From the NCBI RefSeq assembly GCF_003334385.1, contig NZ_QOWN01000220.1: a DNA stretch of 251 nt. One strand, given 5' to 3'. Below, piece by piece: positions 1-251 of this stretch. Position numbers and translations under genes: made by a program. Position 1 is the stretch's first letter, and the number at the start of each line of letters is the position of its first letter. Origin of the DNA: Escherichia coli (GTDB lineage: Bacteria > Pseudomonadota > Gammaproteobacteria > Enterobacterales > Enterobacteriaceae). The notes under the pieces were generated by a model that was given only the letters and a program-made list of their open reading frames with translations, searched no databases and had not been told where the DNA came from.

Positions 1-251
1 CTTACGGCCTCTTTCACCATCTGCTCAAGCATCGGACGCACATCATCGGGGGTAATACTTTTGCCGTCCGCCGGTACAGGAATATTTGCGACCGCATCAT
101 TCACCGCCTTCTGCAATACTTCCGGATCATAGTCACGACCGTCGCGCGGAACAGGGATATGGCTTACCGCCTCCTTCACCATCTGCTCAAGCATCGGACG
201 CACATCATCGGGGGTAATACTTTTGCCGTCCGCCGGTACCGGAATATTCGC
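1..251 (-). CDS. Internal fragment (partial at both ends) of a tandem-repeat protein; possibly a phage tail-fibre-like or surface repeat protein
   Basis: Seen in sequence: the minus-strand frame with codons complementing 249-251, 246-248 ... 3-5 is open across the window (83 codons, 2 leftover bases at positions 1-2). The other two minus frames hit stops early (TGA in both). Plus frames 1 and 2 have stops (TAG at 130-132; TAA near 52-54). The translation is acidic/aliphatic/Pro-rich and protein-like. All four substitutions between the repeat copies (positions 6/168, 12/174, 78/240, 87/249) are synonymous third-position changes in this frame (Ala, Lys, Pro, Ala). Codon choice looks enterobacterial-like (CCG, GCG, GAT, CAG, AAA). 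The product name is inference only; no homology search was possible. Confidence 0.8.
1..251. repeat. Tandem direct repeat with a 162-bp period (about 1.55 copies in the window); copy segments 1-89 and 163-251
   Basis: Seen in sequence: direct alignment of 1-89 against 163-251 at an offset of 162 gives 85/89 identical bases. Mismatches are at 6 (g/c), 12 (t/c), 78 (a/c) and 87 (t/c). The period is a multiple of three (54 codons), so the repeat is in-frame and intragenic. Within one unit, 162-251 and 90-161 are degenerate half-repeats at the protein level. Confidence 0.95.

Follow-up and report, generated by a model that had tools for sequence, protein, structure and literature searches.

Coding repeats that vary in unit number (coding VNTRs) are well known from phage structural genes, as exemplified by the collagen-like repeats of prophage fibre and hyaluronidase genes and by the MLVA loci of E. 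coli O157. Among proteins of the phage head, SPP1 gp12 is a collagen-like capsid binder, and SPP1 gp7 and Mu gpF (the MuF family) are portal-adjacent minor head proteins. In the solved portals of P22, SPP1 and HK97, the C-terminus lies inside the capsid.

Here, we describe a 251-nt stretch of Escherichia coli DNA (the whole stretch is referred to as ‘the window’) that forms part of a coding array with a 162-nt period next to a phage portal gene. Overall, the explanation we consider likely is that of a polymorphic in-frame array combined with a carbohydrate-binding fibre stalk near the portal. For the array itself, in-register 162-nt copy-number changes between otherwise identical prophages are a conclusion that we hold with high confidence. 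The functional part of this reading, i.e., a fibre acting in the vicinity of the portal, is put forward as tentative, being possible rather than probable.

The repeat unit and its genomic context

A repeat search of the window returned an 89-nt pair at positions 1-89 and 163-251, with a start-to-start spacing of 162 nt. The copies are identical at 85 of 89 bases (95.5%; differences at copy positions 6, 12, 78 and 87), confirming the 89 bp of about 95% identity and the 162-bp spacing that the initial annotation had reported. The longest exact direct repeat measures 65 nt, whereas 300 dinucleotide shuffles gave 7.6 nt on average and 11 nt at most, and hence the repeat is not a product of chance. 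The earlier description of the window as ‘repeat from end to end’ is essentially correct, although the window spans only 1.55 periods and positions 90-162—a diverged alternate half-unit of the same motif—occur just once. Neither Rfam matches (both strands searched) nor inverted repeats were found in the window.

The coding frame of the repeat was absent from the initial annotation. Six-frame translation revealed frame 0 of the minus strand to be open over all 251 nt (83 codons plus 2 nt), reading ANIPVPADGKSITPDDVRPMLEQMVKEAV / SHIPVPRDGRDYDPEVLQKAVNDAV / ANIPVPADGKSITPDDVRPMLEQMVKEAV. All four nucleotide differences between the 89-nt copies are synonymous on this strand and none is non-synonymous. 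The remaining ORFs in the window (23 and 43 aa on the plus strand; 28 aa, out of frame, on the minus strand) were unsupported and discarded. The 162-nt period is compound: its 54-aa unit consists of a 29-aa and a 25-aa half-unit, both carrying the motif AVxxIPxPxDG followed by a helix, such that each half contributes one amphipathic helix plus a PxPxDG loop. A weaker sub-repeat family (termed D2) recurs within the window at spacings of 87 and 75 nt with 73% identity. Head-to-tail copies of one unit, the hallmark of a coding VNTR, were found both here and in the related loci L001 and L002, where TRF detected the whole 162-nt period in tandem (3.3 copies). On the window itself, TRF reported no tandem repeat, because it holds only the 1.55 periods. 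The following features were assigned, with the supporting evidence in brackets.

1-251, minus strand: coding sequence, an internal array piece of the portal-adjacent repeat protein (six-frame translation, L001 alignment, ORF and domain coordinates)
171-251, minus strand: 29-aa half-unit, the copy that comes first in the reading direction, ANIPVPADGKSITPDDVRPMLEQMVKE; its first two codons fall outside the window, and the PxPxDG loop is followed by a predicted 17-residue helix (translation, unit catalogue, AlphaFold2 pattern)
96-170, minus strand: 25-aa half-unit AVSHIPVPRDGRDYDPEVLQKAVND, present once in the window (D2 spacings of 87 and 75 nt, unit catalogue)
9-95, minus strand: second copy of the 29-aa half-unit, AVANIPVPADGKSITPDDVRPMLEQMVKE, its peptide identical to the first copy (4 synonymous differences)
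1-8, minus strand: start of the next 25-aa half-unit, namely AV plus 2 nt of a Ser codon (translation, L001 alignment)
1-89, no strand assigned: direct-repeat copy 1 (repeat search)
163-251, no strand assigned: direct-repeat copy 2, 85/89 identical to copy 1 (repeat search)
About L001:5870-5900: LQKHVTVDEV-coding stretch directly upstream of the array
About L001:6530-6570: ILPAIDDQKSFPRG-coding stretch directly downstream of the array

Searching with the window (megablast) matched 90 phage records, mostly of Stx1a-, Stx2a- and Stx2c-converting phages, and 1,146 of 5,426 complete E. coli genomes. The matches were to genes annotated ‘phage portal protein’ in lambdoid prophages, Stx and non-Stx alike. 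The best match among complete E. coli genomes (98.4%) was in strain EC2, at the locus referred to as L001; neither these genomes nor IMG/VR or JGI metagenomes yielded an exact match. Aligned to L001, the window covers 6001-6251 (4 mismatches), within an array spanning about 5923-6510, and corresponds to aa 96-179 of a 407-aa stand-alone ORF or, in the fused form found at L001, to aa 550-633 of an 861-aa protein. A flank-pair query retrieved 2,942 places in 1,246 complete E. coli genomes, with up to 8 per genome. The match of the flank query begins exactly at position 4421 in the phage record PV189401 and in six complete E. coli chromosomes; these sequences seem to have been rotated so that a common prophage packaging gene, instead of dnaA, comes first.

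Gene order in EC2 is TerS, TerL, a 645-aa fusion of prohead protease and major capsid protein, a 73-aa ORF and the 861-aa ‘portal’, followed by head-tail connector, head closure, gp10-like, tail completion and major tail genes, chaperones, and the tape measure. The module order thus reads TerS, TerL, protease-MCP fusion, 73-aa ORF, portal, repeat ORF, head-tail connector. The gene at L001:2205-4142, annotated ‘major capsid protein’, encodes the 645-aa fusion (an HK97-type S78 prohead protease joined to the capsid protein), and its location upstream of the portal gene inverts the portal, protease, capsid order of HK97.

Predicted architecture and relation to the portal

AlphaFold2 was run on the 407-aa ORF as a monomer, with an alignment of 106 sequences, yielding a model of mean pLDDT 78. 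An N-terminal helix (residues 3-49) and a beta domain (residues 275-400) were both predicted at pLDDT above 90, and the array between them as alternating 17- and 13-residue helices connected by 12-residue PxPxDG loops at pLDDT 55-70. A subdomain resembling CBM5/12 modules (pLDDT above 94) superimposed on 2rts and 2d49 with an rmsd of 1.8-1.9 Å over 46-47 columns and a probability of 1.00, at E-values of only 0.06. CBM5/12 chitin-binding domains and Agrobacterium phage fibre proteins were the only solved structures that matched the model, and its neighbours in BFVD and AFDB were phage collagen-repeat, carbohydrate-binding and tail-fibre proteins. By sequence, the Pfam CBM_5_12 profile stayed below significance, with i-Evalues of 0.012 (aa 811-833) and, in homologue P0041, 0.0061. 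A phmmer search of the sequence against the PDB returned only designed helical repeat proteins (E=0.03), and faint Pfam matches to QatB (PF28083), DUF4244 and TetR_C_35 were rejected as spurious.

A further pointer came from distant relatives. Homologue P0258 carries a collagen-like run, GDKGDKGDSIKGDKGDKGDDGRPGEDGRD (GDKGDKGD...), at the place where the E. coli protein has PxPxDGxD, and G-X-Y runs are present in P0258 and P0162 alike. The E. coli protein itself lacks uninterrupted (G-X-Y)n, its units holding only DGRD or DGKS, i.e., one to two triplets. True G-X-Y runs at the PxPxDGxD loops of distant homologues suggest a trimeric fibre, and the repeat protein would accordingly assemble as a fibre that is probably a trimer.

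We therefore sketch a fibre-like virion protein in which the N-terminal helix may serve as the anchor and the repeat array would form a modular stalk, each 54-aa module adding one helix-loop-helix of length. The C-terminal beta domain with its CBM5/12-like subdomain would then be the putative glycan-binding tip. With respect to location, the gene adjoins that of the portal and fusions to the portal are viable, which suggests that the protein sits at or near the portal, either as a neck or head fibre on the outside or docked to the portal on the inside.

The inside option leads to a different reading of the same architecture: an internal head protein, analogous in position to SPP1 gp7 or Mu gpF, would dock on the portal crown and be ejected, with the array acting as a spacer and the CBM5/12-like domain binding peptidoglycan during DNA entry. 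The position of the gene, immediately after that of the portal, is as this would predict, and the CBM5/12 fold is one that binds GlcNAc polymers. Given that portal C-termini face the capsid interior, the tolerated C-terminal fusion is easier to reconcile with an internal protein than with an external fibre. Opposed to this, the Phage_Mu_F profile gave no match in Pfam, PHROGs or NCBIfam, leaving no sequence similarity to MuF or gp7, and in overall architecture, collagen-like relatives and structural neighbours the protein resembles external phage fibres. Taking both sides together, we regard an internal, ejected protein as unlikely.

Whether the repeat region belongs to the portal at all could be read from the junction of the two coding sequences. 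The HK97-type portal models (PF04860, TIGR01537) match the 861-aa protein over aa 54-382 and aa 45-388, placing the window, at aa 550-633, outside the portal domain. In split loci, a portal of ~450 aa is followed by an ORF of ~407 aa that starts with an ATG overlapping the stop codon of the portal (ATGA). The sole difference at the junction between split and fused loci is a run of five or six G (L001:5699-5704), located 12 nt upstream of the ATG of the repeat ORF (L001:5716) and ~300 nt upstream of the window. Among 90 loci, 56 have the G5 state and are split, so that the repeat region is not always part of the portal polypeptide, and 34 have the G6 state and are fused. G5 occurs on 17 junction haplotypes and G6 on four, and both were seen on flanks identical over 200 nt on each side. 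Phage BP-4795 (ORF58 and ORF59) and Salmonella phage FSL SP-016 are split; phage 2851 is fused, with a single CDS of 859 aa.

At the level of the protein family, a HMMER search with the 407-aa ORF returned 5,666 clusters at 50% identity (E ≤ 1e-3). Of the best 149 representatives (median length 400 aa), 148 are devoid of portal similarity, the distant fusions being representative P0240 (1,237 aa) and AFDB entry A0AAX1DK74 (1,143 aa). The commonest repeat spacings in this set are 25 and 29 aa, and the family is kept across Proteobacteria with repeats of similar period. The order of portal, repeat ORF and Phage_connect_1 is likewise retained in Serratia, in Salmonella phage FSL SP-016 and in metagenomic contigs. 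One partial homologue (P0100), which shares 79% identity with the E. coli protein, bears the label Akkermansia sp., probably owing to contamination of a metagenome bin.

Part of the current naming appears to reflect the fused form. The repeat region came to be annotated ‘phage portal protein’ because the extra G fuses the ORF to the portal in some loci. PGAP labels a G5 locus (L100:955-3701) a ‘frameshifted’ portal pseudogene, and stand-alone proteins go by ‘Phage portal protein’, ‘gp6-like head-tail connector’, ‘Carbohydrate binding domain’ or ‘Collagen-like protein’ in UniProt and AFDB. Eight diverse homologues are named only ‘hypothetical protein’. The portal, connector and frameshift labels seem to have been transferred from annotation of the fused form. 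Our literature search returned no virion proteomics, structure or genetics for the repeat protein and no paper on the array, the portal fusion or the function of the protein, nor any for the LC7278xx phages.

Taken at face value, the labels would make the array a genuine C-terminal extension of the portal into the capsid, positioned like the P22 portal barrel, and the split forms frameshift pseudogenes of decaying prophages. The 34 fused loci, the uninterrupted CDS of phage 2851, the PGAP call on the G5 form and the further fusions in P0240 and A0AAX1DK74 are all compatible with such an extension. It is difficult to reconcile, however, with the wider haplotype spread of G5 (17 versus four), with split ORFs that retain an ATG of their own over the portal stop, with 148 of 149 family representatives standing alone, with the synteny shared by Serratia, Salmonella phage FSL SP-016 and metagenomes, with the split state of BP-4795, and with portal models that stop at aa 382-388. 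We consider a portal extension decidedly unlikely. As judged from gene order and junction sequences, the repeat-bearing part is a separate gene and not portal.

No canonical X_XXY_YYZ slippery heptamer was seen on inspection of the sequences at the G run. At the portal stop, the junctions of E. coli, Serratia and Salmonella phage have A_AAA just ahead of the stop codon (..A AAA TGA); portal stops and ORF starts with A_AAA are located at the following positions.

L002:5554
L086:7001
L092:2056
L094:3392

A -1 slip of tRNA-Lys at A AAA TGA would read ATG... in the downstream frame, and the sequence may also merely be an A-rich initiation region. One could speculate that the G5/G6 run is a recurrent, heritable switch, or that G5 is complemented by a low-level -1 slip at A_AAA_UGA. 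Either would set a glycan-binding fibre free or tether it to the 12-fold portal while module number tunes its reach, amounting to a variation system with two knobs. We rate this idea as decidedly improbable; if true, the two-knob variation would act on a large uncharacterised phage family mislabelled as portal or frameshifted pseudogene.

Copy number of the array

Across 83 arrays, counted after correction for a missed first unit, lengths fall into a single series of 102 + n x 162 nt, with the following numbers of arrays.

102 nt: 1 array
264 nt: 1 array
426 nt: 17 arrays
588 nt: 51 arrays
750 nt: 10 arrays
912 nt: 1 array
1074 nt: 2 arrays

From the shortest to the longest, the corresponding ORFs encode 245, 299, 353, 407, 461, 515 and 569 aa, and the fused protein ranges from about 700 to 1,020 aa across array sizes. 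With relatives’ arrays running from 102 to 1074 nt, the initial annotation was justified in stating that unit count and protein length cannot be read from the window. The flank-pair query mirrored this series, with spans of 2114, 2276, 2438, 2600 and 2762 nt in phage records (plus 1 for G6) and, in complete genomes, mostly 2600/2601 with some 2438/2439 and 2762/2763. Two records, ON470597 and PV189401, have spans of 2434 and 2764 nt and are thereby off the 162-nt series by 5 and 1 nt, respectively; extra indels or sequence errors may account for these offsets.

Whole-unit differences, again as in coding VNTRs, were found between near-identical genomes. Five O157 Stx2c phages (L087-L091) have arrays of 102, 264, 426, 588 and 750 nt, containing 0, 1, 2, 3 and 4 interior modules, on flanks with 0-1 mismatches over the upstream 2,519 nt and 0-11 over the downstream 2,493 nt. 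L091 harbors an exact 162-nt tandem duplication. In L088, a hybrid 29-aa unit matches the first unit in its 5’ part and the last unit in its 3’ part, which is the signature of an in-register crossover. The complete chromosomes CP107143 and CP124405 (Sweden and Switzerland) have arrays of 426 and 588 nt between flanks with 0 mismatches in 2,520 + 2,493 nt (5,013 nt). Assembled sizes of 426 versus 588 nt are those of strains S2 and AVS0935.

Interior units are gained and lost, the first and last units being fixed, and regular forms change in 162-nt steps only, never by 75 or 87 nt. This step size fits homology-driven unequal recombination or slippage in register. Near-identical 162-nt units would provide the substrate for unequal homologous recombination or replication slippage, a mechanism that we infer from its products. 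The slippage or unequal recombination in vivo that the initial annotation had anticipated is supported by exact 162-nt multiples on identical flanks, by the exact duplication and by the hybrid unit.

Units within the array are 4-10% diverged. Their pN/pS is 0.17 (29-aa half-units) and 0.22 (25-aa half-units), and, going by these ratios, the unit peptides are under purifying selection. These values speak to the proposal that the repeat is neutral junk in defective prophages, its length being without function. Many EHEC prophages are defective, which lends the proposal some appeal, and an ORF variant with zero modules (245 aa) exists. Neutrality is at odds, though, with the low pN/pS, with regular forms that change only by in-frame 54-aa steps, and with a family kept across Proteobacteria at a similar repeat period; we deem it very unlikely.

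The initial annotation had further called such arrays prone to mis-assembly from short reads. In the 83 arrays, the median length of the longest exact intra-array repeat is 127 nt and the maximum 619 nt; this repeat measures at least 150 nt in 25 of 83 and at least 250 nt in eight of 83, so a substantial minority are uncountable from 150-250-nt reads alone. The window’s copies share only 65 exact bases, and reads of at least 100 nt therefore distinguish them. A larger short-read obstacle than the array is posed by the up to eight paralogous gene copies per genome. The concern over assembly is hence reasonable, and collapse of the array in assemblies is a plausible possibility.

Singletons from draft assemblies displayed out-of-register junctions in the array, e.g., ...MVKEAVANI joined to AVANIPQP... 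and ...HIPVPR joined to TVKSLTPDD.... The out-of-register singletons are listed below.

L096 (P0003)
L097 (P0002)
P0005
P0011
P0018
P0027

In L096, the extra 87 nt consist of a duplicated 77-nt segment and 10 novel bases, hinting at an assembler k-mer effect, and irregular draft singletons are possibly mis-assemblies. Draft contigs breaking inside the array could be ruled out: 89 of 120 listed homologues are without their N-terminus, and their array and C-terminus are complete. Most of the N-terminally partial homologues sit on contigs of about 2-3 kb. Since these partial proteins have full arrays, the contig breaks point to repeats common to several prophages and not to the array itself, in line with the published observation that lambdoid prophages are hard to put together from short reads (PMC4587872). 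For the LC5678xx prophages, long-PCR products were sequenced on a MiSeq (2x300) and the reads assembled (PMC8112680), and the unit counts of this series thus carry the same assembly uncertainty.

That the apparent copy-number variation, and possibly the window’s duplicate too, is mainly short-read mis-assembly would be in keeping with the 25 arrays with long exact repeats, the out-of-register singletons, the MiSeq origin of the LC5678xx prophages and the published assembly difficulty, yet is highly improbable, as complete-level chromosomes show the same 162-nt series, Sanger-era phage genomes fall on it (BP-4795 with 10 half-units, 2851 with 8), the regular variants all preserve the frame and have their terminal units intact, the hybrid units in the deletion products are clean, and the window copies, differing at four synonymous sites, are not a duplicated read.

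Significance and relation to known systems

One to eight copies of the gene are present in roughly a quarter of complete E. coli genomes and in the majority of EHEC genomes. The portal, gp6-like connector and frameshifted-pseudogene labels misdescribe a widespread uncharacterised protein of the virion module. For practical purposes, array length is not to be trusted in short-read drafts where units are identical over at least 150 nt. Provided that it is sized by PCR or long reads, its variation between otherwise identical Stx prophages makes the array a possible fine-scale prophage marker. Should the fibre reading be correct, adsorption or glycan binding of Stx phages could be influenced by module number and by whether the protein is fused or split.

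The protein shares a database name with the HK97-family portals (PF04860, TIGR01537), and its G6 variants are covalently joined to a genuine HK97-type portal. In contrast to these, the window lies at least 160 residues past the end of the portal domain, and the protein is a separate polypeptide in most haplotypes. SPP1 gp7 and Mu gpF resemble it in that the gene is directly downstream of the portal and the product probably portal-associated, but there is no MuF sequence match and the predicted architecture differs.

With phage collagen-like fibre and decoration proteins that have CBM5/12 tips, the protein has in common a C-terminal CBM5/12-like beta domain, a repetitive stalk of variable length and, in distant family members, G-X-Y runs at the positions of the PxPxDG loops. 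It departs from them in that the collagen part of the E. coli protein amounts to one to two triplets per half-unit, the stalk being mostly alpha-helical, and in that the gene is situated between portal and head-tail connector instead of in a tail-fibre module.

The array itself is closest in kind to coding VNTRs, with head-to-tail in-frame units, whole-unit differences between near-identical strains, change by slippage or unequal recombination, and the same problem for short-read assembly. Unlike those, it has a long 162-nt period with two diverged half-units per compound unit, and its units are 4-10% diverged and, to all appearances, under purifying selection. The array is apparently an undescribed example of a well-known kind: a polymorphic in-frame coding repeat in a phage structural gene.
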